NCBI GenBank assembly: GCA_024762485.1 | Contig: JANTHH010000001.1 | Location: forward strand, 1 to 48,966 | Length of the DNA: 48,966 bases | Source: Chromatiales bacterium | GTDB taxonomy: Bacteria; Pseudomonadota; Gammaproteobacteria; Chromatiales; Chromatiaceae | Direction of reading: 5' to 3' | In this document: piece after piece, positions 187-48,966 of the stretch | Position numbering within the stretch: the stretch's first letter is position 1 | Layout: the number at the start of each line of letters is the position of its first letter | Made by a program: the position numbers and the translations under genes | Notes under the pieces: model-generated | Database searches by the model: none | What the model was told of the DNA's origin: nothing | What the model saw: only the letters and a program-made list of their open reading frames with translations

Positions 187-1466
187 CCCGCTCCCACGAC
201 CTGTTCGAAAAAGCCCGGCGCCACATACCCGGCGGCGTGAATTCCCCGGTGCGGGCCTTCAAGGGCGTGGGTGGCGACCCGGTATTCATCGACCACGCCG
301 AGGGGGCCTACCTGTTCGACAGTGATGGCCAGCTGTACATCGACTATGTGGGATCCTGGGGGCCGATGATCCTCGGTCACACCCACCCCGAGGTGATCGC
401 CGCGGTAAAGGCCGCCGCCGACAAGGGCCTGTCCTTCGGCGCCCCCACCGAGGTGGAAATCCGCATGGCCGACCGGGTGTGCGACATCATGCCCGGCATG
501 GACATGGTACGCATGGTCTCATCAGGCACCGAGGCCACCATGAGCGCCATCCGCCTGGCGCGCGGCTATACCGGCCGCGACAAGATCGTCAAGTTCGAGG
601 GCTGCTACCACGGCCACGCCGACTCGCTGCTGGTGAAGGCCGGTTCCGGCATGCTGACCCTCGGCGAGCCGTCCTCGCCCGGCGTGCCCGCGTCGCTGGC
701 CGAGCATACCCTCACCCTGAACTACAATGACGCCGAGCAGGTGAAGGAGACCTTCGCCAGGCTCGGCGAACAGATCGCCTGCATCATCGTCGAGCCGGTG
801 GCCGGCAACATGAACTGCATCCCGCCCGTGCCCGGCTTCCTCGAGACCCTGCGCGCACAGTGCGACGAGCACGGCGCGGTGCTGATCTTCGACGAGGTGA
901 TGACCGGCTTCCGGGTCTCGCTCACCGGCGCCCAGGGCCACTATGGCATCCAGCCGGACCTGACCACCCTGGGCAAGGTCATCGGCGGCGGCATGCCGGT
1001 GGGTGCCTTCGGCGGCAAGGCCGAGATCATGCAGAAGATCGCCCCGCTCGGCCCCGTCTACCAGGCCGGCACCCTGTCCGGCAATCCGGTGGCCATGGCC
1101 GCGGGCCTGAAGACCCTGGAACTGATCTCCGCCCCCGGCTTCTACGCAGACCTGTCCAGCAAGGTCGACAGGCTGGTCGCTGGCGTCATGCAGGCCGCCG
1201 CCGATGCCGGCGTCCCCTTGGCGGAAAACCACGTCGGCGGCATGTTCGGCTTCTTCTTCACCGGGGCTGGACCAGTCACCGACTTCGCCGGTGCCACCGC
1301 CTGCGACCAGGAACAGTTCAGACACTTTTTCCACGGCATGCTGGACCGTGGCGTGTACCTGGCGCCTTCCGCCTTCGAGGCCGGCTTCGTCTCCGCGGCC
1401 CACAGCGGCAAGGACCTCGACGCCACCATCACCGCCGCCAGCGAGGTCTTCGCCGATCTAGGCTGA
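183..1466 (+). CDS. hemL: Glutamate-1-semialdehyde 2,1-aminomutase
   Basis: 427-aa ORF with the typical HemL N-terminus ([25 protein letters not shown]) and class-III aminotransferase body ([28 protein letters not shown]). Confidence 0.97.
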
Positions 1467-3863
1467 TGTCTCCGGCGGCGCATCAAAGGCATACTCCTCC
1501 GCCCCGAGGGGCGGCTGTACGAAATAGCCCTGCACGAGGTCCACGCCACAGCGATACAGCTCGCTCAGGACCTCTGCCGTCTCCACGTAGCCGGCGACGA
1601 CCCGCGGCCCGGCCTTCTGGATGCGCGCCACCACCTCGCCCACATATTCGACCTGTGCCGCATCCTGCGCCAAGGCACGGGTCAGCGCCTGTGGCAGCTT
1701 GACCAGGGCCGGCCGCAGGGTGTGAATGATCTGGCTTCCCCGCTTGCTGGGGATCACGCCCTCCACCATCAACTGACAGCCCAGCGCGGTGAGTGGGCGA
1801 AGGCCTTCGGCCATCGCCTCCAACGGGACATCCTGTCCCGGTCTGTCGAAGGAGAGACCGATCAGGCTGGCCGGCAGGCCGTGCCTGTTCAACGCGGCAA
1901 CGAGCCAATCAGGGAATGCGGGATCCAGCAGACTCTGCTGCGAAATCTTCATGAACAGCTGGCCCTGCCATCCCTTGCCGACATGGGGTGCAGCCCACGC
2001 CAGCACGCCCTCGATGACATGCTGATCGAGGGTCTCGGCCAGGCCGGCGTAGGGCATGAGGCGCATGAAATCCGATGGCGGAGCACCCTCGCCGGGGACA
2101 TCCGCATCGCACAGGCGACTGCGCACTTCGATGCAGTCATTGGCCCCGCTGACCAGATCGACCATGGGCTGCATCAGCAGACGCAGACGCCGCCGCGTCT
2201 CGTCGAGGTCGGCCTTCAGTTGCGCCGCCCGGTTTTTATTCGTGGCCACCCACAGCCTGCGCGCGGCCTCCAGACCCTGGGCCACCACCCGCCCGCCACC
2301 GGCCTTCTGTGCCTTGCGGCAGGCCAGGCCGGCGCGCCGGATCTGTTCCACCACCGAAAGCTGAGGCTCGCACATCACCAGACCACCTGAATTGCCCGGC
2401 CAGTGATGATCTACCTTGCAGATATCCTGTGCCAGCAGGCGTGCCTGCCCGAACCCGAGGTGGCGCATCACCATGGCGACACCGTGGGCAAAGCGCAGCG
2501 GGTGGGCATCCGGATATCGCCTGGCCAGGTTCGACATCAGATGCTCAAGTGCCGATTCCAGGGCACTGAGATCCTCGCTGCTGGCAGGGATATCCGGTTC
2601 CAGGTAGAGCAGTGCGCCACCCTCTTCGGCCGTCGCCACCTCGAGCAGCTTAAGCAGGTTTTCGTTCGCCAGCAGGTCCATGTGATGAAAGACACCCGCA
2701 GCGGCCTCCCGGCGTGCCCGCGCACGCTGCAGGTGCAGACTGACGGCATCCACCAGCAGGGCCGGGGAGATCGGCTTCTGCAGGAAGTCATCGCCCCCGG
2801 ACTTCAATGCCGCAAACTGGCGCGCCGGGCTCTGCTCACGGGAGAGAAAGAGGACGGGGACATCGTCCCAGGCCGGGAACTGCCGGATCAATGCGGTCAG
2901 CTCCTGGCCATCCACCTCCGGCATGTAGAGATCCATGAGGATCAGGTCCGGCCGGTGACGCTGCAGCGACTGTTCGATGGCCTCCGGCTTCAGCAGCCCC
3001 TCGACGTCGAAACCGGCCTGCCTGAGCACCCCCTGCAGATAGGCCGACTGGTCCGCATCATCCTCAACCACCAGGATCCGGGCGCCGCCGGTCACCGGAT
3101 CGAGCAACAGCAGGAGACGCTCCAGCAGCAGGTGCATGTCCACGGGCTTGGTGAGGTAGGCATCACCGCCAGCGCGGATCGCCCGCAGACGACTCTGCAT
3201 GTCCCGCCGGGCGGAGAGGAAGATCACCGGCAAGGGCAGGCGATTGGCCCGGCGCATGGCGGCAATCGCATCGATGCCGCCAAACTCGCCCTCCGGCAGC
3301 ATGACGTCCATGATCACCGCTGCCGGATTCTCTGCCTCCACCGCCGCAGGCAGCAACGCTGCCGAATCCATCACCCGGACCCGGTAACCCGCCAACTTCA
3401 GTTGCGCTGTCAGGTAGTCGGCCATGTCGGCATCGTCATCTACCAGGTACAGCAGATGACCTCTCTGCTCCCCCGGCGCCGCTGGCCGGTTGGTGGCAGC
3501 ACCCACTGTCGTGGAAGGCTCGTGCAGCGGGTGGGTGACCGCGTCCTCCAGGCGGCCGAAGAGGATCCCCAGCCTGCCGACGATCTCCGGGTCGATCCCG
3601 CCGGACACCGGCATGAGCTCTGCCAGCGCCTGTTGCAATTGATCGGCAGCCGCACTGATCTCCAGGAAGCGGAAGCTGCCGCTGGCACCCACCAGACTGT
3701 GCAGGTGCCGCATCAATGCATCGAGGTCCCCGCTCTCGGCAACGCCTTCCGCCACCTGCCGCCAGCAACGGCGGATCTCATCGAGCCGTTGCGGCAGCCC
3801 GTCGATGAATCGCTGACGTACCGCCGCCAGCTTGCCGTTCCCGGGAATTCCCTGTTCCTGCAT
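1458..3863 (-). CDS. Multidomain signalling protein: Hpt - REC - REC - degenerate GGDEF-like - degenerate EAL-like
   Basis: 801 aa. The N-terminal Hpt has [10 protein letters not shown]. Two receivers carry intact Asp/Lys pockets (VIMDVMLP...YLTKP and LILMDLYMP...FLQKP). The GGDEF-shaped region has RFAHGVAMV where RxGGDEF is expected. The EAL-shaped C-terminus (QPMV..IEVRSRL...VAGYVET...QGYF) has the DDFGTG position reading VEGVIP. An RBS (GGAAGGA) lies 6 nt upstream of the ATG at 3863. Confidence 0.85.
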
Positions 3864-3878: not shown

Positions 3879-5408
3879 CTAGCCCAGTTCACTCAGGGTC
3901 TTGAGCAACACAGCGGGATCGATGGGCTTCGCCAGATAGGCATCGACGCCGACCGCAGCCGCCTGCGCCTGCTCGGCCTGCCCCGCCGCCGCAGACAGTA
4001 TGATCACCGGCCCCTCGTACCCCTCATCTCGGGCCGCCTGCACGACCTGCGGTCCCATCATGTCGGGCAGATGCAGATCCATGAGCAGCAGGTCCGGTTT
4101 CGAGGCGGTCAGGGCCGCCAGCGCCATCCCGCCATCCGCTGCAAAGGCGAGGTCGTAACCACTGTCTTCGAGATAAGCCCCGAGCAGTGCCCGGATATCG
4201 GGGTCATCCTCGACGATCAGCAGATGCCGCCTGCCGGTCGTCCGGGCCCGTGTGACCGGTATCCGATGGGACTCGGGGGCATCGATGTCGAAGACGAAGC
4301 GGCTGCCCTTGCCCGGTGTGCTCTCCAGCTGCATCCGCCCCCCCATGCGTTCAACCAGTGCCAGGGTGATGGCGAGACCCAGCCCGGCGCCATGCCTGCG
4401 AATGGCAGGCTGCCCGGCCTGTCTGAAAGGCTCGAAGATACGTCGTTGCTCCGCCACCGGGATCCCGCTGCCGGTATCGCTGACCGCGACGTTGAGCCGG
4501 GCGTCCTGCCAATCGAGTGTCACCCGGATCTCGCCCTGTTGCGTGAACTTGAATGCGTTGCCGGTGAGATTGACCAGGATCTGCCGCAGGCGCATGCCAT
4601 CGAGCAGCAGGCAGGCCGGCAGTCGGGGGCTGACCTCGACGGTGAAGCCGATACCCGATTGCCGGGCAGTCCGCTCGAACATCTGGCGAATGACCCCGGC
4701 GATCTCACGCACGTCGGTCTCTGTGGGATTCAGCTGGAGTTCATCGTTCTCCAGCTTCGCCTGGTCGAGCAGATTATCAACCAGGCTCAGCAGGTGGCGT
4801 GCCGCGCCTTCCATGGCGTCGAGATAGGCCGGCTTCATCTCGCCCTGATGGCGAAGATCGAGATATCCCAGGATGCTGGTGAGCGGCGTGCGGAATTCGT
4901 GGGACATGTTGCCGATGAACAGGCTCTTCAGTTGGCCGGCCTCCTCCAGCCTGCGATGACTCTCCTGCAGACGCACCTGGCTCTGTTCCAGTTCGGCCAG
5001 CAGTTTTTCCCGCTGCCGGTGCAGCAGCGCCAATTCATTGGCCGCCTGTTGCCGCTCCCGCCGCTGGGCCTGTTCATCCGAGGCATCGAGCAGCACGATG
5101 CCGAGTCCTGCAGACAGCGGCACCAGGTGGACATGGGCCGTGTGCGCCACCCCCGGACGGGTCTCCATGCTGAGGAACTCCAGCACCAGCGGCTCGACGA
5201 GTCCTGCAGCCGTGCCACTGAGCCAGGGCAGGACATTGTCGAGCCGTTCCCCCTCCACGAGGTCCGCCAGGCCGTAAAAGTCCAGGTCGCCGGAGGCGCC
5301 GGTGAGCCGCTCTTGCGCATCGGCCACCAGGCACAACGGGTGCACGCGGTGAAACAACTGGCGGTCCAGGTAGTGCTGCAGTTCCTGCGGCAGGCGGTGC
5401 TCTTTCAT
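3879..5408 (-). CDS. Soluble hybrid sensor histidine kinase (unassigned N-terminal domain - coiled coil - HisKA - HATPase_c - REC)
   Basis: I chose the ATG at 5406-5408 (MKEHRL...) rather than the 618-aa ORF-track start, because it overlaps the stop of the upstream GTPase gene as ATGA. H-box SHEFRTPL, N-box NLTGNAFKFT, G1 DTGSGI, G2 GAGLGLAI. The C-terminal receiver has LLLMDLHLP...YLAKP. No hydrophobic TM segment is present. Confidence 0.9.
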   Translation of the reverse strand: MKEHRLPQELQHYLDRQLFHRVHPLCLVADAQERLTGASGDLDFYGLADLVEGERLDNVLPWLSGTAAGLVEPLVLEFLSMETRPGVAHTAHVHLVPLSAGLGIVLLDASDEQAQRRERQQAANELALLHRQREKLLAELEQSQVRLQESHRRLEEAGQLKSLFIGNMSHEFRTPLTSILGYLDLRHQGEMKPAYLDAMEGAARHLLSLVDNLLDQAKLENDELQLNPTETDVREIAGVIRQMFERTARQSGIGFTVEVSPRLPACLLLDGMRLRQILVNLTGNAFKFTQQGEIRVTLDWQDARLNVAVSDTGSGIPVAEQRRIFEPFRQAGQPAIRRHGAGLGLAITLALVERMGGRMQLESTPGKGSRFVFDIDAPESHRIPVTRARTTGRRHLLIVEDDPDIRALLGAYLEDSGYDLAFAADGGMALAALTASKPDLLLMDLHLPDMMGPQVVQAARDEGYEGPVIILSAAAGQAEQAQAAAVGVDAYLAKPIDPAVLLKTLSELG

Positions 5409-5905
5409 CGTGCAGCAATCGCGTTCGCCAGCTGCTGAAATACCGCGCCGACGCCCTCGCCTGTCTTGGCGCTGCAACATTCCACGGGCCAGCCCGCAGC
5501 GATCCGTTGCGAGATATCGTCCGGCGTCACCTCCCACGCCGCCTTCAGGTCGGCCTTGTTGACTGCCGCCACAAAGGGGGTGTCGCCGAGCATCCCGCTG
5601 ACCTGTTCCTGCAGCCTGCAGGCGGTCTCCAGGGTGTCCCGACGGGTACCGTCGATGACCAGCAGGTAGCCCGCAGCGCCCCGTAGATAGGCGCTGCCCG
5701 TCGCATTCAGCACATCGGTCCCTGCCAGGTCCCACAACACCAGCTTCATCGCCATGCCCCCCTCCAGTTCCACCTGCCGTGTGTCGATCTTGACGCCGAC
5801 GGTGGTGAGATATCTGTCGGAGAAGGTGCTATGCACGTAACGCGCCACCATGCTGGTCTTGCCCACCGAAAAATCACCGACCATGCAGATCTTCGCCGCC
5901 TGCAT
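5405..5905 (-). CDS. Ras/Rap-like small GTPase (166 aa)
   Basis: Starts at ATG 5903-5905 (MQAAKICMVGDFSVGKT), 1 nt after the stop of the upstream gene. G1 GDFSVGKT, switch-I TTVGV, G3 WDLAGT, G4 NKAD and G5 SAK occur in canonical order and spacing. The longer ORF-track N-terminus overlaps the upstream gene and has a low-complexity R/P/C composition. Confidence 0.85.
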   Translation of the reverse strand: MQAAKICMVGDFSVGKTSMVARYVHSTFSDRYLTTVGVKIDTRQVELEGGMAMKLVLWDLAGTDVLNATGSAYLRGAAGYLLVIDGTRRDTLETACRLQEQVSGMLGDTPFVAAVNKADLKAAWEVTPDDISQRIAAGWPVECCSAKTGEGVGAVFQQLANAIAAR

Positions 5906-5906
5906 G

Positions 5907-7880
5907 TCAGCCCGACCCGCCCTGTGTGTCGCCCTCCGGCGAGAGGAAACGGATATGCACATCCGCCCGCCGGCTGGCCAGTTCGGGCACGCCACGGCCC
6001 CGCTTCGGCACCGCCGTTTCAATGAGGAACAGTGATGCCGGCAGCCCCTCGCCAACCAGCAGGTCAACCAGCCGCCGGGCCCGTGCCGCGGCGAGCTGGC
6101 GGTTGTACTGGGGCGTGCCAACAGCATCGGTACGGCCTGTGACCACCACCTTGAAGGGCCGCTGCAGCCGCTCCGCCAAGTGCTGGATCTCGCGCAGGCT
6201 GTCGGCCAGCGACGACATGCCCGCCAGCTGGCCGGGATCGGGATCAATGCCATTGGGGAAGCCGATACTCACCTTGTCGACCTCGGCCACCAGGGTGTCG
6301 AGCCGGCGGGATTCACGGACCACCAGCGCCTTGTCGTCGAGCCCGGCAAAGCCGGGCAACTGCTCCAGCGGAAGGATCGACAGGCGCTGCTTCCAGTCCA
6401 GCGGGGCGTCACCCTCGAGCATGATCCAGCCATCCTTCACGCGCAGAGTGACCCCTTCCGGAGGATCGATCATGGCCCTCGCCTGCTGCAGCAAATAGCT
6501 GTCGCGGTCGGTCAGCCGACTGTCATCGAAGGCGTTGATGCCGGGGATCGCCGGTGCCAGCAGCCGGGCACGCTCGATCCAGCGGGCATCCGGGACGCCT
6601 TCGGCCAGCAGTACGCCATCCGCGCCCAGTCTCAGATTGACCGTGGGCGGCGGCGCGAGGATACGCTGTGCCCGGCGCAGGGCGAACGGGGGCGAGAGAT
6701 CCTGGTAGGGCCGCCAGTTGAACGTCACCGCATCCGCCGCTAGGCCACTGCCAGCTACCAGCTCGTCGAGCGGTGGCGCGAGGGGGTCCCGCAGGCCCTC
6801 GATATGCAGCCGGCCATCCGTCCGGTCGACACGTGTCACCACCACGCCGGGACGGGACTCGAGCTGTTGCAACAGTGCCGCCTCCCGTCCCCGGCGTTCA
6901 CTGGCGGCACGCTGCTCGTCCCAGGCCTGGTAACCGAACCATGACAGCAGCAGCACGACAAACGCCAGCAGCCACCACAGAAAGGCGCGGCGCGGTCTCT
7001 TGTCCGTCTCACGCTCCTCCGACACCAGGCAGCGGCGCAGCTCCGGCTGCACCGCCAGCAGCGAATCGCTGTCGCCGTCGAAGGCCTTTATCGCAGCAGC
7101 AAATTTCTCGTGCACGTCCTCGAGGATGCCCATCAACCGCTGCCGCAGGTCGGGTGGCGGCATACCTCGGATGACGCAGGCCATCAGGGCGTAGGGTCCG
7201 TGCAACAGCAAGACGGTGTGCTCGCCCACGTCCACCGTATCCAGGGTGCCCTCGCCGCCCGCGACGAAGGCATCCTTGACGAAGTCCTCGATGGCAGTGA
7301 GCATCGCGGAGACCGCGTCCGCGTCCCGGTCCAGGGCCGTGGGGTCGGCCACATGCTGCATCAGCAGACCACTGCCGGGCTGGATCAGGAATACCTGTTC
7401 CACCCGGTAGATGAGGGTGTGGCGCAACACCACGGCAGAGAACGGCACGCCGGCACGCATGGCCTCGATGCGCCAGGCGATGCCTCGGGGTGAAAGGCTG
7501 TGCTCCAGTGCCTTGTTGAGTGCATCGACGATGCCGCGAAGTGATTCGGCGATGGCGCGCCGGATGGCGGGACCCATGACCGGGAACAGGGCATCGGCCA
7601 GGGAATGGGGGTCGGCCTGGACGGAGCGATGCAGACATTCGGCCACTGGCGCCTCGAGGGCGCTGATCAGGGCGTCGCCCTGCCGTAGTTGCAGCTGTAC
7701 CGCATCCGGCAGCACCTGCGATACGTCCTGGGCTCGCAGGGGCAGATCATCGATACGCTGACGCAGCTGCTCGAGGTCCTTCTGCTCGGGCTCGAACAAA
7801 AGGCGCTTCAGGGTATCGAGTGCGTCCGCGTCCGTGGTGGACGGCCGATCATCCCGGGGTTTCGGTCCCTGCTGATTCAC
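5907..7880 (-). CDS. Bitopic membrane protein: cytoplasmic Roadblock/LC7-like region - 1 TM - periplasmic BON-like repeats - OmpA_C-type peptidoglycan-binding domain
   Basis: 657 aa with a GTG start. It has a single hydrophobic helix (AFLWWLLAFVVLLLSWFGYQAW, aa ~299-320). The C-terminus (VVVTGRTDAVGTPQYNRQLAAARARRLVDLLV...RRADVHI) matches the OmpA/MotB peptidoglycan-binding signature (TD..G....N..LS..RA). The cytoplasmic aa ~155-260 has a Roadblock-like pattern (details in the findings). Confidence 0.8.
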   Translation of the reverse strand: MNQQGPKPRDDRPSTTDADALDTLKRLLFEPEQKDLEQLRQRIDDLPLRAQDVSQVLPDAVQLQLRQGDALISALEAPVAECLHRSVQADPHSLADALFPVMGPAIRRAIAESLRGIVDALNKALEHSLSPRGIAWRIEAMRAGVPFSAVVLRHTLIYRVEQVFLIQPGSGLLMQHVADPTALDRDADAVSAMLTAIEDFVKDAFVAGGEGTLDTVDVGEHTVLLLHGPYALMACVIRGMPPPDLRQRLMGILEDVHEKFAAAIKAFDGDSDSLLAVQPELRRCLVSEERETDKRPRRAFLWWLLAFVVLLLSWFGYQAWDEQRAASERRGREAALLQQLESRPGVVVTRVDRTDGRLHIEGLRDPLAPPLDELVAGSGLAADAVTFNWRPYQDLSPPFALRRAQRILAPPPTVNLRLGADGVLLAEGVPDARWIERARLLAPAIPGINAFDDSRLTDRDSYLLQQARAMIDPPEGVTLRVKDGWIMLEGDAPLDWKQRLSILPLEQLPGFAGLDDKALVVRESRRLDTLVAEVDKVSIGFPNGIDPDPGQLAGMSSLADSLREIQHLAERLQRPFKVVVTGRTDAVGTPQYNRQLAAARARRLVDLLVGEGLPASLFLIETAVPKRGRGVPELASRRADVHIRFLSPEGDTQGGSG

Positions 7881-7910
7881 CTGGATTCAATCCCTGTAGC
7901 ACAGGCCATT

Positions 7911-8489
7911 TCAGGATTTGTCCATGCCTTCCATGTCGAATGAGCCCTTGAGCCGCAGTGCCACCTCGCCAAGCATGTCGGCAAGACTCTCGCGGCTCAG
8001 TTTGTCGTCATGCAGTTGCTGCGTTTCCTTATCGAGGGAATCGAGCAGTTGCTCGCCCTGCTTGCGCATCGCGGCCTGCAGCACATCGACCTGGTCGTGC
8101 AGTTCCATGCGCAGGTCCGTGAGCTGTTTGCCGGCATCCTTGTGCACCTCGTCAAGGCGTTTCGCCAGTGAATCGTCCGCCTGCTTGAGCACATCCGAGA
8201 GGCTGCCCAGCGCCTGGGCCGCGGCCTTTTTTTCTGTCTCCAGTGCATTGCCGAGCCGTTCGACCTGGGTGTTCAGCAGATCTTCCAGCCGCTTGAAGCG
8301 TGCATCGAGATCATCCTGCAGCTGTACCCTGTCCCGCTCGAGACGCTCCTCCAGCCGCTGGAAGCGACGATCGAAGTCCCGCATCTGTCCACCGAACAGA
8401 ATTTCTCGAATCTGATCAACATTGTCAGACGTCGCTTCGGTGGCTGCCTCTACCCCCGCGACCTTCTTGGATGCCTTGTTGCCTGCCAT
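7911..8489 (-). CDS. Acidic coiled-coil protein, function unknown (first gene of the operon)
   Basis: 192 aa with an ATG preceded by AAGGAG. Long heptad-like E/R/L/Q/D-rich sequence with no TM or signal peptide. It lies 30 nt upstream of the next gene on the same strand. Confidence 0.6.
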   Translation of the reverse strand: MAGNKASKKVAGVEAATEATSDNVDQIREILFGGQMRDFDRRFQRLEERLERDRVQLQDDLDARFKRLEDLLNTQVERLGNALETEKKAAAQALGSLSDVLKQADDSLAKRLDEVHKDAGKQLTDLRMELHDQVDVLQAAMRKQGEQLLDSLDKETQQLHDDKLSRESLADMLGEVALRLKGSFDMEGMDKS

Positions 8490-8671
8490 CTCGTGGACTC
8501 CTTGCCCGGGCTATTGCTTCAAACTGTGACCTGATTCTATATCTTGCAATTGCCAGACCCTAGCACTTTAACTACTTGAAATCTCCAATCCGGCGACTGG
8601 GAAATGTCGTCAATACAGATGCCTGCAGCGACCGATGGATACCATTTCGGGCGCTAACTGCAGACACCAAA

Positions 8672-8700
8672 TAAAAAAGACCCCGCCAGATGGCAGGGTC
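8672..8700 (-). terminator. Rho-independent terminator after the lipoprotein gene
   Basis: Minus-strand RNA reads GACCCUGCC-AUCU-GGCGGGGUC: a 9-bp stem including one G.U pair, followed by UUUUUUAU. It lies 32 nt downstream of the stop at 8732. Confidence 0.72.
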
Positions 8701-8731
8701 TCCTATTACGTACCGCAGTGATGTCAGGCGA

Positions 8732-9814
8732 TCAACCCGCCGACATGACACCCAGTTTTTTCAGCGTCTCAAGGGTCAGCTGACCGACAGCCAGCCCGTT
8801 CTTGCGCTGATAGGCCTTGACGGCAGCCATGGTCTGGCGACCAACGATGCCATCGATCGGACCGGGGTCGAAACCGTCATCCTTCAATGCCACCTGTAGT
8901 CGCTTCACCACGTCCTTGGTGGTATTGGTTTCACAGAGGATTGGGCGCCACTCAAGCTCGCCCTCGCTGACCAGCTGGCGTTCCTTAATGGTGCGATACT
9001 CCGCCGGGATATCAAATTGCTGCTCGCTGGCATCCTTGACCATCTTGCGCACCCTGATGGTCTTGTATTCCGCCGGAACCACCTCGGTAGCCGTCTTGGC
9101 AGACTCGACCACCACGCGCTTGCGCACGACCTTGTACTCGGCCGGAATGGCCACCTTGCGGACACCGGCCGGCTTGACCAGTACACGCTTGGCAACGTTC
9201 TTGTACTCGGCCGGGACCTCCACCAGACACATGATCTCGCCGGTGGCATCATCGATTTTCTCGATCGGACCGCGACCCTTCTTCCAGGTGGTATAGGCAT
9301 CGCGCACGAGCACCTTCTCGTACTCGGTCTCATACACCGCGGGCTCCTCGATCAGCTTGCTGGAGGCCTCCTTGACCAGCACGCGCTCTTCCACCCAGTC
9401 GTATTTCGCCGGGATGACCTTGAGCACTTCGGTGGGCTCCTTCACCAGCACCTTCTCTTCTACCCATTCATAGACGGCGGGCACCGTCTGGATACGCTTG
9501 CCGGCCTCCTTCACCAGGACGGTTTTCTCGATATCCTTATATTGTGCAGGCGCGAATACCCGGGCATAACACTCGCCGGGCTGTGCCTTCGGCGGCAACA
9601 GGTTGTTCCCCGCATCACCCTCACCCGCAGACTGTGCATCACGGGTGGACATCTCACCCCTGAGGCCTTGCAGCGATTGCTTCAGACTTGCGTTCTCCCG
9701 CTCCGTTTCCTTCAAGCGCATTTCCAGATCATCACGTGACTGCATACCGCTACAGCCCGACAGACCAATGATCGCGGCGCTCGCCAACAATCCAAATACT
9801 ATTCTTTTGTTCAT
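8732..9814 (-). CDS. Lipoprotein with eight 23-aa tandem repeats and a C-terminal PG_binding_1-type peptidoglycan-binding domain
   Basis: Starts at ATG 9812-9814 (MNKRIVFGLLASAAIIGLSGC) with lipobox LSGC and a GGAGAG RBS. The repeats follow [VI]PA.Y..V...VLVK.A. The C-terminus (VVKRLQVALKDDGFDPGPIDGIVGRQTMAAVKAYQRKNGL) is a typical PG_binding_1 motif. Confidence 0.85.
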   Translation of the reverse strand: MNKRIVFGLLASAAIIGLSGCSGMQSRDDLEMRLKETERENASLKQSLQGLRGEMSTRDAQSAGEGDAGNNLLPPKAQPGECYARVFAPAQYKDIEKTVLVKEAGKRIQTVPAVYEWVEEKVLVKEPTEVLKVIPAKYDWVEERVLVKEASSKLIEEPAVYETEYEKVLVRDAYTTWKKGRGPIEKIDDATGEIMCLVEVPAEYKNVAKRVLVKPAGVRKVAIPAEYKVVRKRVVVESAKTATEVVPAEYKTIRVRKMVKDASEQQFDIPAEYRTIKERQLVSEGELEWRPILCETNTTKDVVKRLQVALKDDGFDPGPIDGIVGRQTMAAVKAYQRKNGLAVGQLTLETLKKLGVMSAG

Positions 9815-10033
9815 CGGATCCTCTCCAAATTTTATGAACGTCTTTCCGAACCCGTAACTCAGCCACCCTGTCTGCTCAGCCCGACAGCCCCTGCTCGAAT
9901 CACCCTCGCCATCTGTCACGACCAATCAATCAGACGCTTGGTATTTCACTTTGTTTTCAACAACTAAGCGCATTACCCGGAACATCTGACCGACGACTGA
10001 CCGCACCTGAAAACCGTGAGTCGACCAACTATC

Positions 10034-10050
10034 AGCAAGGGCAGTGCCAA
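10034..10050 (-). promoter_or_regulatory. Sigma-54 (RpoN) -24/-12 promoter
   Basis: The minus strand reads TTGGCAC-TGCCC-TTGCT, which matches TGGCAC-N5-TTGCW exactly. It is oriented toward the lipoprotein gene, whose ATG is at 9814 (~210-nt leader). Confidence 0.7.
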
Positions 10051-10130
10051 GTTTTCGAACCCAGGTCGAATGCAATGAGGATCACCGGCCTGTATGGGCG
10101 TCTGGGTGGATGAAAGGAAAGGGTGATGCG

Positions 10131-10150
10131 GCGCACGCGCACTCGTGCGC
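10131..10150. promoter_or_regulatory. Inverted repeat GCGCACG-N6-CGTGCGC (candidate activator-binding site or weak terminator)
   Basis: Perfect 7-bp arms centred ~93 bp upstream of the -24 element and ~55 nt downstream of the Hpt stop. No U-tract follows on the minus strand. Confidence 0.3.
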
Positions 10151-10199
10151 ACAGGCTGGTGGTGGGCCGGGATAAATCAGTGGAGTGAAGGATCGCCGG

Positions 10200-10526
10200 T
10201 CAGGTGGGGGAGCCGGTGTCCTCGGGAGGGATGATCTCTATCGATGCGAGATGTTGATCGAGCCGCTGCAGCTGTTGATCGATCACCGCATCGTCCGACG
10301 CCTGCGCGGCCTGCTCCAGGGCAAGACCGATGGCTGACAGGTGATCAAAACCATAGCTGCCCGCGACACCCTTGAGGTTGTGAGCCAGCTGCCACAGGCG
10401 TCGATGGTCCCGGGCCTTCGCGGCAGCACGAATCACGTCGAGTTCCCGGCGGCGGTTCTCAAGGAAGGCCGGCACCAAGTCAGCGATGCCGGCCGCGATC
10501 CTTATCCGGTGAGGCTGCCCGCTCAC
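10200..10526 (-). CDS. Stand-alone histidine phosphotransfer (Hpt) protein
   Basis: 108 aa with the Hpt signature AHNLKGVAGSYGF. Its GTG start overlaps the stop of the upstream activator gene (GTGA). Confidence 0.8.
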   Translation of the reverse strand: MSGQPHRIRIAAGIADLVPAFLENRRRELDVIRAAAKARDHRRLWQLAHNLKGVAGSYGFDHLSAIGLALEQAAQASDDAVIDQQLQRLDQHLASIEIIPPEDTGSPT

Positions 10527-11893
10527 TGGCCGGCCGACTCGGCCTCGGCCCGGAAGCTCGCCGCATCCAGACCATGGCGCCCCAGCAGCTTGTAGAATTC
10601 GGTGCGATTACGCCCGGCCATGCGCGCGGCAGTACTGACATTGCCATTGGTGGTGCGCAACAGACCGACCAGGTAGCGGTGTTCGAAGGCATGCTTCGCC
10701 TCGTCGAGCGACTGCACCTCACCCACCTGGTCCGCCAGGGCCTCGACGACCAGCTGGTCGGGGATCACCTCGGAGGTGCTCAGCACCACGCAGCGTTCAA
10801 CCAGGTTGCGCAGCTGCCGCACGTTGCCCGGCAGGGCGGCCTGCAGCAGGTACTCCTGCCCCTTGGGGGAGAAGCGCCGTCGCGCCGAGGGCTTTGTCCC
10901 CGCCAGGGACGCGAGGAAATGCTCGATCAGCAAGGGGATGTCTTCCCGGCGATCACGCAGCGGGGGTATCAGCAGCGGCACCACGTTCAGCCGGTAGTAC
11001 AGGTCTTCGCGGAATTCATGGCTGCACACCATGGACAACAGGTCATGGTGGGTGGCGGAGATGATCCGCACATCGACAGGCACCGCCTTCAGCGCACCCA
11101 CCGGGCGCACCTGGAAATCCTGCAGCACCCTCAGCAGCTTGGCCTGCAGGTTGGCGGGCATGTCGCCGATCTCATCCAGGAACAGGGTGCCCTTGTCCGC
11201 CGCCTGAAACAGGCCGACATGGCGGCTGTTTGCGCCAGTGAACGCACCCTTCTCATGGCCGAACAACTCGGACTCAAGCAGGTGTTCCGGCATGGCACTG
11301 CAGTTGATGCTGACAAAAGGTCCCTGGCGACGCGGGCTGGCCCTGTGGATCGCCTTGGCCAGCTCCTCCTTGCCGGTACCGGTCTCTCCGCTCAGCAGCA
11401 GCGTGGTATCGCCCATCGCCACCAGACGGGCCCGCTCCACCAGCTCCACCATGGCCGCGGAGCGGTAGACCAGCCCCTCACCGAAGGCCTGGACGGCCGC
11501 ACCCTGCTTGCCTCCGGCACGCTGCAGTGCGCGCTCCACCGCAGCGACCAGGTCCGGCTCCCGAATGGGCTTGGTGATGAAATCCGATACCCCCAGGTGT
11601 GCCGCCTGGATGGCATCACGCACCTCTGCCTGGCCGCTGATCAGGATCACCGGCAACACCGCATCCAGCTGGTGGATGGCCGACAACAGGCGCATGCCAT
11701 CGAGTTCTTCCATCATCAGGTCGCTGACCACCAGATCCGGGCGGCGCCGCTCCATCACCGCCAGTGCCTGACGCCCGCCAGCAGCGGCCGTCACCTGCAT
11801 GCCGGCGAGTTGCAGCCAGCGTTGCGTCAGCGCCAGATGATCGGGGTCATCGTCGACGACAAGGATGTGGGCGCCTTTGGCATGGTCGGACAT
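10523..11893 (-). CDS. Sigma-54-dependent response regulator (REC - AAA+ - Fis-type HTH), NtrC/LuxO class
   Basis: Receiver ILVVDDDPD...VVSDLMM...ITKP. Walker A GETGTGKE, GAFTGA loop, Walker B LFLDEIGDM. The C-terminal HTH is NVSTAARMAGRNRTEFYKLL. I preferred the ATG at 11893 (AGGAAA RBS) over the TTG at 11917. Confidence 0.93.
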   Translation of the reverse strand: MSDHAKGAHILVVDDDPDHLALTQRWLQLAGMQVTAAAGGRQALAVMERRRPDLVVSDLMMEELDGMRLLSAIHQLDAVLPVILISGQAEVRDAIQAAHLGVSDFITKPIREPDLVAAVERALQRAGGKQGAAVQAFGEGLVYRSAAMVELVERARLVAMGDTTLLLSGETGTGKEELAKAIHRASPRRQGPFVSINCSAMPEHLLESELFGHEKGAFTGANSRHVGLFQAADKGTLFLDEIGDMPANLQAKLLRVLQDFQVRPVGALKAVPVDVRIISATHHDLLSMVCSHEFREDLYYRLNVVPLLIPPLRDRREDIPLLIEHFLASLAGTKPSARRRFSPKGQEYLLQAALPGNVRQLRNLVERCVVLSTSEVIPDQLVVEALADQVGEVQSLDEAKHAFEHRYLVGLLRTTNGNVSTAARMAGRNRTEFYKLLGRHGLDAASFRAEAESAGQ

Positions 11894-11920
11894 CGTGGGG
11901 TTTCCTGGCCTGTTCAAGGA

Positions 11921-11948
11921 AAAACTGTCGTGACCAGACGACAGTTTT
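11921..11948. repeat. Perfect 11-bp inverted repeat AAAACTGTCGT-N6-ACGACAGTTTT in the divergent intergenic region
   Basis: Read directly from the sequence. It lies 28 nt upstream of the activator ATG and ~150-175 nt upstream of the plus-strand sigma-54-like promoter. Confidence 0.5.
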
Positions 11949-12095
11949 TAAATTTCGCGCAGCATGCAATTGCTCGTGCCTGCGGCCCGATCAATCACCT
12001 GAACACCATGCCCCAACAAAACACGACACACAACACCCTGTTACACATAGCTTTTTCGAAGATCAATGACATACGAACCCGCATCCCATGATAAT

Positions 12096-12110
12096 TGGCA
12101 CGCAATTCGC
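12096..12110 (+). promoter_or_regulatory. Near-consensus sigma-54 promoter upstream of the MscS-family gene
   Basis: TGGCAC-GCAAT-TCGC has correct GG/GC spacing and one mismatch in the -12 box (TCGC instead of TTGC). It lies ~70 nt upstream of the ATG at 12180. Confidence 0.45.
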
Positions 12111-12179
12111 TGTTGGGACATGTGGCATGCAAACATCTCTGAACACGTTACCAACCAACTAACAACGAGGATCAATGAA

Positions 12180-13010
12180 ATGGACATCGCAGGATTTGAC
12201 ATCAACCACCTTATAGACATCTACCTGATTCCCTGGGGCATCAAAATCGTCACCGCCCTGGCGGTCTTCATCATCGGCCGCTGGATCGCCAAGAAGCTGG
12301 TCAGCGTGCTGAAGAAGGTCATGGCCAAGGGCTCCGTTGACGAGATGCTGAGCGCCTTCATCGGCAACATCGTCTATGCCCTGCTGCTGGTGGTGATCGT
12401 GCTGGCCGCGCTGGAACAGCTCGGCGTCAACACCACCTCGGCACTGGCCATACTCGGTGCTGCCGGCCTGGCCGTCGGTCTGGCACTGCAGAGTTCGCTG
12501 TCCAACTTCGCCGCCGGCGTCATGCTGATCATGTTCCGCCCCTTCCAGAAGGGTGACTTCGTCGAGGCCGCCGGACAGAGTGGTGTGGTCGAGGAGGTGC
12601 AGATCTTCAATACCACCATGAAGACCGGCGACAACCGCCAGATCATCATCCCCAACGGTCAGATCTACGGCGGCACCATCGTCAACTATTCCGCCAAGGA
12701 TACCCGTCGCATCGACCTGGTGATCGGCATCGGCTATGACGACGACATCGCCAAGGCCAAGGAAATCCTTGCCGACCTGATGGTGCAGGAGAACCGCATC
12801 CTCGCCGACCCGGCACCCGCCATCGCACTGGGCGAACTGGGCGACAGCAGCGTCAACTTCAATGTACGCCCCTGGGTCGCCTCGGGCGACTACTGGCCGG
12901 TGCGCGGTGACCTGCTGGAGCGGATCAAGCTCGCCTTCGATGCGGCCGGCATCTCGATCCCCTACCCGCAGCAGGATGTGCACATGTACGAAGAGAAAAA
13001 GATTGCCTGA
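12180..13010 (+). CDS. Small-conductance mechanosensitive channel, MscS family
   Basis: 276 aa from the ATG at 12180 (RBS GAGGA). Three TM helices are followed by the MscS beta-domain pattern (FRPFQKGDFVE...GVVEEVQIFNTTMKTGDNRQIIIPNGQI). Confidence 0.9.
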   Translation: MDIAGFDINHLIDIYLIPWGIKIVTALAVFIIGRWIAKKLVSVLKKVMAKGSVDEMLSAFIGNIVYALLLVVIVLAALEQLGVNTTSALAILGAAGLAVGLALQSSLSNFAAGVMLIMFRPFQKGDFVEAAGQSGVVEEVQIFNTTMKTGDNRQIIIPNGQIYGGTIVNYSAKDTRRIDLVIGIGYDDDIAKAKEILADLMVQENRILADPAPAIALGELGDSSVNFNVRPWVASGDYWPVRGDLLERIKLAFDAAGISIPYPQQDVHMYEEKKIA

Positions 13011-47230: not shown

Positions 47231-48811
47231 TTATTTGACGACAGGCGCATCGGTGAAGGAGTGATACGGCGCGGGTGACGGCAGGGTCCATTCGAGGCCC
47301 TGCGCCCCTTCCCACACCTGGTCGGACGCCTTTTCACCGCCCCGGATCGTCTTGAATACGACATAGGCAAACATCAGCTGGGAAAGGCCGAAGACAAAGC
47401 CACCGATGGACGAGATCATGTTCCAGTCCGCGAACTGAACGGAGTAGTCGGGGATCCGCCGAGGCATGCCGGCAAGGCCGAGGAAGTGCTGCGGGAAGAA
47501 AAGCACATTCACCGAGATCGTGGAGATCCAGAAATGCAGTTTACCGAGGCGCTCGTCATACATATTCCCGGTCCACTTCGGCAGCCAGTAATAAGTGGCT
47601 GCCATGATCGAGTAAACCGCTCCGGTCACCAGCACATAATGGAAATGGGCCACCACGAAATAGGTGTCATGGTACTGGAAGTCAGCCGGTGCAATCGCCA
47701 GCATCAGGCCCGAGAATCCACCGATGGTGAACATGAAGATGAAGCCGATGGCAAACAGCATCGGCGTCTCGAAGGTCATGGAACCCTTCCACATGGTCGA
47801 CACCCAGTTGAACACCTTCACCCCGGTGGGCACGGCGATCATCATGGTGGCATACATGAAGAACAGTTCGCCCACCACCGGCATGCCGACGGTGAACATA
47901 TGGTGCGCCCAGACGATGAAGGACAGGAAGGCAATCGATGCGGTCGCGTAGACCATTGAGCTATAGCCAAACAGGGGCTTGCGCGCAAAAGTCGGAACGA
48001 TCGCCGAGACGATACCGAATGCCGGCAGGATCAGAATGTAGACCTCGGGATGACCGAAGAACCAGAAGATATGCTGGAACATCACCGGGTCACCGCCGCC
48101 CGCCGCACTGAAGAACGAGGTACCGGCAAACTTGTCGGTCAACAACATGGTCACCGCCCCGGCCAGTACCGGCATGGTGGCGATCAGCAGATAAGCCGTG
48201 ATCAGCCAGGTCCATGCGAACAGTGGCATCTTCATCAGGGTCATGCCCGGTGCACGCATGTTGAGTATGGTCACCACCACGTTGATCGATCCCATGATGG
48301 ACGAGATACCCATCAGGTGGATGGCGAATATCACGAACGGGAATGCCGCCCCTGTCTGCAGCACCAGTGGCGGGTACAGGGTCCAGCCGCCCGCGGGCGC
48401 ACCACCGTCCATGAAGAAGGTGCTGATCAACAGCGTGAAGGCAAAGGGAAGGATCCAGAAGCTGAAATTGTTCAGCCGTGGCAGTGCCATATCCGGCGCG
48501 CCGATCATCATCGGGATCAGCCAGTTTGCCAGGCCTGTGAAGGCCGGCATCACCGCACCGAAGATCATCACCAGGGCGTGGACCGTGGTCATCGAGTTGA
48601 AGAACTGCGGATCGACCAGCTGCATGCCAGGCTGGAACAGTTCTGCACGGATCACCATCGCCATCGCACCACCGATGAAGAACATCAGCAGTGCCAACAG
48701 CAGATACAGGGAGCCGATATCTTTGTGATTGGTTGTGGTAATCCAGCGCATCAGCCCCTTGGCGGGACCATGATCATGATGCTCATCATGTATCGCGGTT
48801 GCAGTTGTCAT
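47231..48811 (-). CDS. coxA: aa3-type cytochrome c oxidase subunit I
   Basis: 526 aa with [18 protein letters not shown] and the full haem-copper oxidase subunit I pattern. Confidence 0.97.
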
Positions 48812-48832: not shown

Positions 48833-48966
48833 TTAACGCGCCGCCTTGACGGCGGAGGGTTGAACAACACTGGCACTGTTGCCCCAGCTGTTACGCTCGT
48901 ACGTGATCACTGCGGCCAGATCGACATCGTTCAGCAGGCCCTTGTAGGCTGCCATCGCCGTGCCAC
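48833..48966 (-). CDS. coxB: Cytochrome c oxidase subunit II, C-terminal fragment (cytochrome c domain tail)
   Basis: The minus-strand frame ends ...GTAMAAYKGLLNDVDLAAVITYERNSWGNSASVVQPSAVKAAR* with TAA at 48833-48835. This is typical of the fused c-type domain tail of CoxB. The 5' end lies outside the window. Confidence 0.78.
   Translation of the reverse strand, partial: GTAMAAYKGLLNDVDLAAVITYERNSWGNSASVVQPSAVKAAR

Follow-up and report, generated by a model that had tools for sequence, protein, structure and literature searches.

In Vibrio, LuxO-LuxU pairs drive the Qrr sRNAs, and in Caulobacter the flagellar sigma-54 promoters have FlbD 'ftr' enhancers lying ~100 bp downstream of the transcription start. 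GlrR binds TGTCN10GACA, and its classical targets are the sRNAs GlmY and GlmZ (PMC3045617). The Group 1 Rup neighbourhood was defined in a 2014 survey (Wuichet and Sogaard-Andersen, PMC4316618) as four adjacent genes, which encode a coiled-coil protein, a protein combining an unknown domain with a C-terminal OmpA domain, a Ras-like (Rup) GTPase and an output protein of the histidine kinase or c-di-GMP type. No experimentally characterised Rup interaction was reported there, and a term search of the survey for the spelling 'sigma54' gave no match (PMC4316618). Here a 48,966-nt stretch of DNA (the window) was analysed, in which a sigma-54 promoter is placed between an activator-Hpt gene pair and a lipoprotein gene, with a Group 1 Rup module further downstream. 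The features around this promoter are as follows.

10034-10050, minus strand: sigma-54 promoter P1, unique in the window as an exact match to the consensus and conserved in nine loci
9815-10022, minus strand: predicted 5' leader of ~208 nt, without terminator, Rfam family or significant structure
8732-9814, minus strand: lipoprotein gene, the predicted P1 target; its 360-aa product has an LSGC lipobox, internal repeats and PG_binding_1 at the C-terminus
8675-8704, minus strand: intrinsic terminator closing the lipoprotein unit, a 13-pair stem and then a T run
10200-10526, minus strand: Hpt phosphotransfer protein, whose GTG overlaps the activator stop (GTGA), as in translational coupling
10523-11893, minus strand: sigma-54 activator of the GlrR/QseF family, with REC, AAA+ (GAFTGA) and Fis-type HTH

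P1 reads TTGGCACTGCCCTTGCT on the minus strand from 10050 to 10034, that is TTGGCAC, TGCCC and TTGCT. The -24 element (TGGCAC) is at 10049-10044 and the -12 element (TTGC) at 10038-10035, the spacing between the GG at -24 and the GC at -12 is exactly 10 nt, and transcription is predicted to start at ~10022. When both strands of the window were scanned for TGGCAC-N5-TTGCW with zero mismatches, P1 alone was found, confirming the exact match and the correct -24/-12 spacing claimed by an earlier note on this DNA. Dinucleotide shuffles gave a mean of 0.08 exact matches per window, with one or more matches in 8 of 100 shuffles; on window-wide statistics alone, the exact match is only mildly improbable. 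P1 is on the coding strand, within the 385-nt gap from the Hpt stop (10200) to the lipoprotein ATG (9814), 150 nt below the Hpt stop and with 220 nt between its -12 element and the ATG. The distances (150 nt from the Hpt stop, ~210 nt to the ATG at 9814) and gene coordinates given earlier were correct, and the enhancer-binding protein said to be encoded directly upstream (10523-11893) was found to have both a Sigma54_activat domain and the GAFTGA loop. No rpoN gene was detected among the window ORFs examined, so we infer the presence of sigma-54 from the activator.

Related loci were collected by searching with the lipoprotein against genomes and with the activator against a large protein collection, and contigs were fetched for selected matches. 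Activator orthologues of 56–65% identity were obtained from the protein collection, and the activators of the loci compared were 60–65% identical to that of the window. Three loci (L130, L133 and L135) had the gene order of the window, i.e. activator, Hpt, PG_binding_1 lipoprotein, coiled-coil protein, 650-aa protein, GTPase and hybrid kinase, except that no GTPase gene was called in L133. This order was also seen in L128, with a longer lipoprotein, and in L002, where a DUF4332 gene in reverse orientation interrupts it. The activator was beside the Rup module and the lipoprotein absent in L125, L127, L129 and L134, and the activator-Hpt pair alone was kept in L126, L131 and the P0004 locus. 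Wherever a Rup module was present, the first unit downstream was preceded by a sigma-54 consensus. An Hpt gene directly followed the activator orthologue in nine loci (L125, L126, L128, L130, L131, L133, L135, L002 and the P0004 locus) and was two genes downstream of it in L127. A metagenome scan with the activator yielded 80 loci (35–54% identity) with no adjacent Hpt gene and one distant Hpt-like match (L106).

Several other features of these contigs were recorded. In L002 (2264-3676) two ORFs (2264-3013 and 3104-3676) together make up the activator orthologue, the result of a frameshift in a pseudogene or of faulty assembly. A 135-aa DUF4332 protein was encoded beside the lipoprotein gene or the Rup module in L125 (13417-13824), L129 (8410-8817), L002 (4708-5115) and L005 (5538-5944), and its gene was the first behind a sigma-54 promoter in L125 and L005. 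In L127 (3776-9640, Candidatus Sedimenticola), glmU and glmS were directly upstream of the activator orthologue, an adjacency that recalls the enterobacterial GlrR-GlmY-glmS circuit, and two site-plus-promoter pairs would, by their position, drive an OmpA/TSP_3 gene and an Hpt-REC-Rup operon. In L134 (8922-9240), the orthologous promoter, with a site at -178, was followed by a ~290-nt unit ending in a strong terminator. This unit contained no lipoprotein gene; a basic ORF of 31 codons is possible in it, and it may specify either a small protein or an sRNA.

The homologous intergenic regions of nine loci were aligned (A2). Mean column identity was 43% (9-way), and the invariant columns were TGGCAC and TGC of the promoter, plus one isolated column (C173). 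In a 5-way alignment of homologous regions (A1), TGGCAC..TGC was the sole invariant block. Judged by this conservation, P1 is a real, conserved sigma-54 promoter. It is standard in kind, an ordinary sigma-54 promoter beside an activator gene.

The activator contained Response_reg, Sigma54_activat (232 bits) and AAA_lid domains and the sequence EKGAFTGA. It was 52% identical to E. coli K-12 GlrR over the full length, and the recognition helix RNRTEFYKLL (AARMAGRNRTEFYKLL) was identical in the two proteins, their DNA-binding ends being nearly so (GNVSTAARMAGRNRTEFYKLLGRHGLDA in the activator and GNVTHAARMAGRNRTEFYKLLSRHELDA in E. coli GlrR). Among 119 NCBIfam families GlrR was its best match, at 516 bits, under the equivalog cut-off of 763. 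Scores were 295 bits on the LuxO equivalog (cut-off 800) and 20 bits on LuxU (cut-off 140). By its sequence, then, the activator is a member of the GlrR/QseF family.

E. coli GlrR sites read TGTCGCTTTCTGGCGACA and TGTCTCTTTTTAGCGACA. A position matrix for CTGTCG-N8-CGACAG sites was derived without using any site of the window, and motif specificity was assessed by scanning 1.3 Mb of fetched DNA at a threshold of at least 13 bits; the metagenome activator loci (35–54%), which gave no synteny, were reused as a control. The scan returned 46 matches, of which 43 fell in L002 and L014, already linked to the regulon, or in loci whose activator belongs to the GlrR clade (identity of 47% or more). The other three came from ~1 Mb of loci in which the sigma-54 activators were all more distant or the lipoprotein homologues unrelated; at this threshold, the background where no GlrR-clade activator is encoded is ~3 matches per Mb. 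Orthologous promoters with an upstream GlrR-type site at about 144–188 bp were found in seven relatives: the site centres lay between -166 and -188 from the predicted start in L130, L133, L135, L128, L134 and L002, and at -144 in L129. In many of the 47–54% loci, such sites directly followed the activator gene, with a sigma-54 consensus and then a small gene or short terminated unit behind them, suggesting that an adjacent target promoter is a general habit of the family. In most of the GlrK/GlrR-like metagenome loci L050-L059 (47–54%), the activator gene was followed directly by a sigma-54 consensus together with one or two GlrR sites; behind these, the cases inspected had either genes for EF-hand-like, small secreted proteins or, in L059, a short RNA with a terminator.

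The predicted sites of the window, and the second promoter and gene associated with them, are listed below.

9866-9889: site B, predicted GlrR-type palindrome GGCTGTCGGGCTGAGCAGACAGGG, 14.4 bits, second in the window
9928-9968: AT-rich patch between P1 and site B, with an IHF-consensus match AATCAGACGCTTG (9928-9940, plus strand)
11920-11949: site A, predicted palindrome AAAAACTGTCGT-N6-ACGACAGTTTTT with perfect 12-nt arms and the core TGTCG-N8-CGACA at 11926-11943
12096-12111, plus strand: sigma-54-like promoter P2, TGGCACGCAATTCGCT, one mismatch, divergent from the activator gene
12180-13010, plus strand: MscS-type mechanosensitive channel gene, its likely start being an ATG preceded by a GAGGA Shine-Dalgarno sequence

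Upstream of P1 (10051-10400) the best matrix score was -3.1 bits and no activator site was found, so the canonical site at about -177 is missing; its position would coincide with the Hpt stop. Sites ~80–200 bp upstream of the promoter were thus a feature of the seven related loci and of P2, and not of P1. Two other sequences upstream of P1 were considered as enhancers and rejected. A GC-rich repeat at ~10131-10154 (GTGCGCAC-GA-GTGCGCG...) did not match the family motif and was not conserved. A segment at the Hpt stop (~10188-10207) was aligned with the enhancer of the relatives in A1, yet it scored -5.5 bits and was placed elsewhere by the 9-way alignment; it is at best a relic.

Site B lies within the leader, 55 nt ahead of the ATG, and is centred at ~+145 relative to the predicted start. 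Its 14.4 bits fall within the range of the best matches of shuffled windows (mean 12.1, maximum 18.4). In L014, whose lipoprotein was the closest homologue in the genome collection (60% identity), the -177 site was also absent, and a perfect site (23.6 bits) was found at +157, in a leader segment that was homologous by eye, with a distant second site at -416. Site B is ~163 bp from the -24/-12 centre, and the canonical upstream distance is ~159 bp; its placement would therefore amount to a mirror-image enhancer arrangement. The AT-richest 40-nt bin was at +60 to +100 in the window and at -100 to -60 in L130, L133, L002 and L128. The AT-rich patch with its IHF match between P1 and site B is suggestive only. 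Given its place in a transcribed leader, site B could just as well be a repressing site or a roadblock.

Site A (matrix match 11923-11946) ranked first in the window with 25.3 bits, which exceeds the top match of every one of 50 shuffled windows. The site is centred ~41 nt before the start codon of the activator gene (11893) and may therefore also autoregulate that gene. The palindrome is flanked by A5 and T5 and resembles a bidirectional intrinsic terminator, which could insulate the activator-Hpt operon. The third-best site of the window (6197-6220, 13.9 bits) had an exact TGTCG-N8-CGACA inside the OmpA-type gene; this intragenic sequence (6200-6217) encodes MSSLADSL, the equivalent in L129 has one mismatch and reads LSQLAAS by eye, and it is probably a coding coincidence. 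A minus-strand GGCAC..TTGCA at ~11965-11985 was rejected as a promoter, its GG-to-GC spacing being one base too long.

P2 is exactly 153 nt from site A, the centre of which is at about -188 from the predicted start of P2, the canonical enhancer geometry that P1 does not have. The TCGC variant of its -12 element also occurred in regulon promoters of L125 and L127. Since 2.16 one-mismatch sigma-54 matches are expected per window, the P2 match is not significant by itself; as a rough estimate, the chance of such a match at the right distance and orientation from the best site is ~0.003. Upstream of the activator gene, L131, L125 and L126 likewise have divergent sigma-54 promoters; mscS is the probable target of P2. 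In L125 (6667-6918) and L131 (4644-4895), the position held by mscS in the window is taken by a gene for an 83-aa protein, divergent from the activator and behind a sigma-54 consensus; a Pfam scan of the L125 copy gave no match. Another one-mismatch sigma-54-like sequence of the window, TGGCACGGCGATGGCA (48950-48965, minus strand), precedes the gene for a COX1-family oxidase (47231-48811) by ~140 nt; its position is at the extreme end of the window, and a chance match is probable.

The lipoprotein gene had been proposed as the target of P1, and the comparison gave this proposal support: the same promoter was followed by a PG_binding_1 lipoprotein gene in five relatives (L130, L133, L135, L128 and L002). 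An intrinsic terminator was located after the lipoprotein gene in L130, L135, L128 and the window, indicating a unit of promoter, leader, lipoprotein gene and terminator, which supports the lipoprotein as the target. Among 44 lipoprotein homologues in genomes, a sigma-54 consensus (at most one or two mismatches, in a plausible position) was found for L002, L014 and L005 only, suggesting that the sigma-54 control is specific to the lineage. The L005 homologue, from an alphaproteobacterium, is behind the consensus TGGCACGGAACTTGCC and after a DUF4332-type gene, as judged by eye from its N-terminal sequence.

The earlier note had seen no hairpin plus U-tract in the leader and had preferred a long 5' UTR to a Qrr-like sRNA, and both statements held. 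In a scan of the minus strand from P1 to the ATG no intrinsic terminator was found, the single site being that at 8704-8675, after the lipoprotein stop. Rfam at the gathering threshold gave no match in the whole window, and at E<=10 on 9700-10250 it gave only mir-230 (16 bits), which is meaningless. The fold z-score of the leader was -1.66, and the leader was poorly conserved in alignment A1, save for the site B segment common to the window and L014. The leader was accordingly rejected as an sRNA, and no Qrr- or GlmY-like sRNA was found at the locus.

Downstream of the lipoprotein unit is the Rup module, with the following genes.

3879-8489, minus strand: the whole Group 1 Rup module, its domains and gene order fitting the published definition (PMC4316618)
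7911-8489, minus strand: coiled-coil protein, 192 aa
5907-7880, minus strand: OmpA-type protein, 657 aa, with a C-terminal OmpA domain
5405-5905, minus strand: Ras/Roc GTPase, 166 aa
3879-5408, minus strand: hybrid histidine kinase, 509 aa, with HisKA, HATPase and REC
1458-3863, minus strand: protein with Hpt, two REC and EAL domains, 801 aa, following the Rup module

The module was syntenic in L002, L125, L127-L130 and L133-L135 (in L133 without a called GTPase gene). In the window and nine related loci, it is beside a GlrR-like activator and sigma-54 promoters, and most of these loci also have an Hpt gene. Genes for the kinase, for Hpt and for the activator were found together across loci, and the hybrid kinase (3879-5408) is the probable source of phosphate for Hpt. 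A separate promoter for the Rup operon was sought in 8490-8675, where no sigma-54 promoter or activator site was present (best score 3.1 bits).

Taken together, we propose, with a probability of roughly 0.7, that P1 is functional as the promoter of the lipoprotein mRNA and is opened by the adjacent GlrR-family activator, most likely by way of site B. Sigma-54 dependence, the transcription start, the wiring of the phosphorelay, activator binding and activation from downstream are all predictions from sequence in this model. A signal, probably envelope-related, would reach the Rup module and the hybrid kinase, and phosphate would be relayed through the receiver domain of the kinase to Hpt (10200-10526) and on to the receiver domain of the activator. 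The activator would then recognise CTGTCG-N8-CGACAG sites, oligomerise on them and remodel the sigma-54 holoenzyme at P1 (lipoprotein) and P2 (mscS). At P1, the closed complex of the holoenzyme would be opened by the activator encoded immediately upstream, and the transcript would be a monocistronic lipoprotein mRNA from ~10022 to the terminator at 8704-8675. The site ~177 bp upstream of P1 appears to have been lost; the activator would most likely act from site B, ~163 bp downstream of the -24/-12 elements, by looping across the AT-rich segment, with site A, 1.9 kb upstream of P1, as a possible helper. The link from the neighbouring activator to the lipoprotein gene, as first suggested, is strengthened by the GlrR-family identity of the protein and by the predicted sites that flank orthologous promoters, with the qualification that P1 itself has no canonical upstream site. 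A broader claim, that the locus has both an enhancer inside the leader (+145–157, shared by two or more lineages, those of the window and L014) and the first identifiable transcriptional output of a Group 1 Rup module, is put forward only tentatively, and we regard the two together as doubtful.

The other readings agree with parts of these data. P1 could be functional and yet uncoupled from its neighbour, being driven by some other enhancer-binding protein, with site B a relic or a repressor-type site. The canonical site at about -177 is indeed absent from the window, and the three GC-rich GTGCGC units upstream (~10131-10154) could be a site for another protein; however, no other activator gene is nearby, site B is at the mirror-image distance and is matched by the perfect site of L014, and seven relatives use, by sequence, a GlrR-type site for this promoter. 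We therefore consider uncoupling unlikely. An output consisting mainly of a regulatory RNA of the GlmY or Qrr kind, or of a leader processed into one, would agree with the classical GlrR targets GlmY and GlmZ, with the Qrr sRNAs driven by LuxO-LuxU pairs, with the ~290-nt terminated unit lacking a lipoprotein gene behind the L134 promoter and with L059, where a GlrR-clade promoter is followed after ~170 nt by a terminator. Set against the absence of a terminator between P1 and the ATG, the lack of anything credible in Rfam, the z-score of -1.66 and a leader that is not conserved among loci, such an output is very unlikely.

That P1 is a chance or silent sigma-54 binding site without transcriptional output is the least probable of these readings. 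An exact match did occur somewhere in 8 of 100 shuffled windows, and many of the sigma-54 sites mapped in E. coli are reported to be non-productive (PMC4591121). P1, however, is intergenic, on the correct strand and adjoining an activator gene, and it is invariant across nine loci though its flanks fall to 43% mean column identity. Transcription of the lipoprotein gene from P1 under the GlrR-family activator is thus the reading we prefer.

If so, a concrete regulon that can be tested is available for an activator of the GlrR family from outside the Enterobacteriaceae, comprising a peptidoglycan-binding lipoprotein and an MscS channel, and in relatives also OmpA-type proteins and the Rup operon itself. 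The locus also ties a GlrR-like activator to the Group 1 Rup module by gene neighbourhood; if true, the chain from the Rup hybrid kinase through Hpt and the activator to the lipoprotein and MscS would make the Rup module an envelope-stress circuit. With the enhancer upstream in the relatives and, as predicted, downstream here, the promoters form a natural pair that asks if sigma-54 enhancers work just as well from within a transcribed leader. P1 alone is useful for annotation and not surprising; its value is in these connections.

The locus resembles the GlrR/glmY (glmZ) system of E. coli and Yersinia in its activator family, recognition helix and motif (TGTC(G)-N8/10-(C)GACA), in the promoter type (TGGCAC-N5-(T/C)TGC), in the activator gene beside the target promoter and in the presence of a lipoprotein gene in the locus. 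It differs in that the score of the activator on the GlrR equivalog model (516 bits) falls short of the cut-off (763), its partners are Hpt and a hybrid kinase and not GlrK(QseE)/QseG, and the target is a protein-coding lipoprotein gene instead of the sRNA GlmY or GlmZ. Site placement also differs, with one downstream site here and three sites >100 bp upstream in the GlrR/glmY system. As in Vibrio LuxO-LuxU, a REC-AAA+-HTH gene is followed by a small Hpt gene, a feed from a hybrid kinase is probable and a sigma-54 promoter adjoins the operon. Unlike LuxO-LuxU-qrr, the equivalog scores are far below the cut-offs and there is no Qrr-like RNA, terminator or Rfam match; the promoter is downstream of Hpt and co-directional here, whereas it is divergent from the activator gene in LuxO-LuxU. 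The resemblance is only one of operon layout.

A literature search for downstream sigma-54 enhancers gave nothing usable. The Caulobacter FlbD case has a downstream enhancer in common with the present locus, while activator family and motif differ and the arrangement here is deduced from sequence alone. The same four-gene module is found here as in the Group 1 Rup neighbourhoods (PMC4316618), and in the present loci it adjoins a sigma-54 activator and sigma-54 promoters. What is less ordinary about the locus is that its only nearby predicted enhancer lies downstream of the promoter and that it is linked to a Rup GTPase module.
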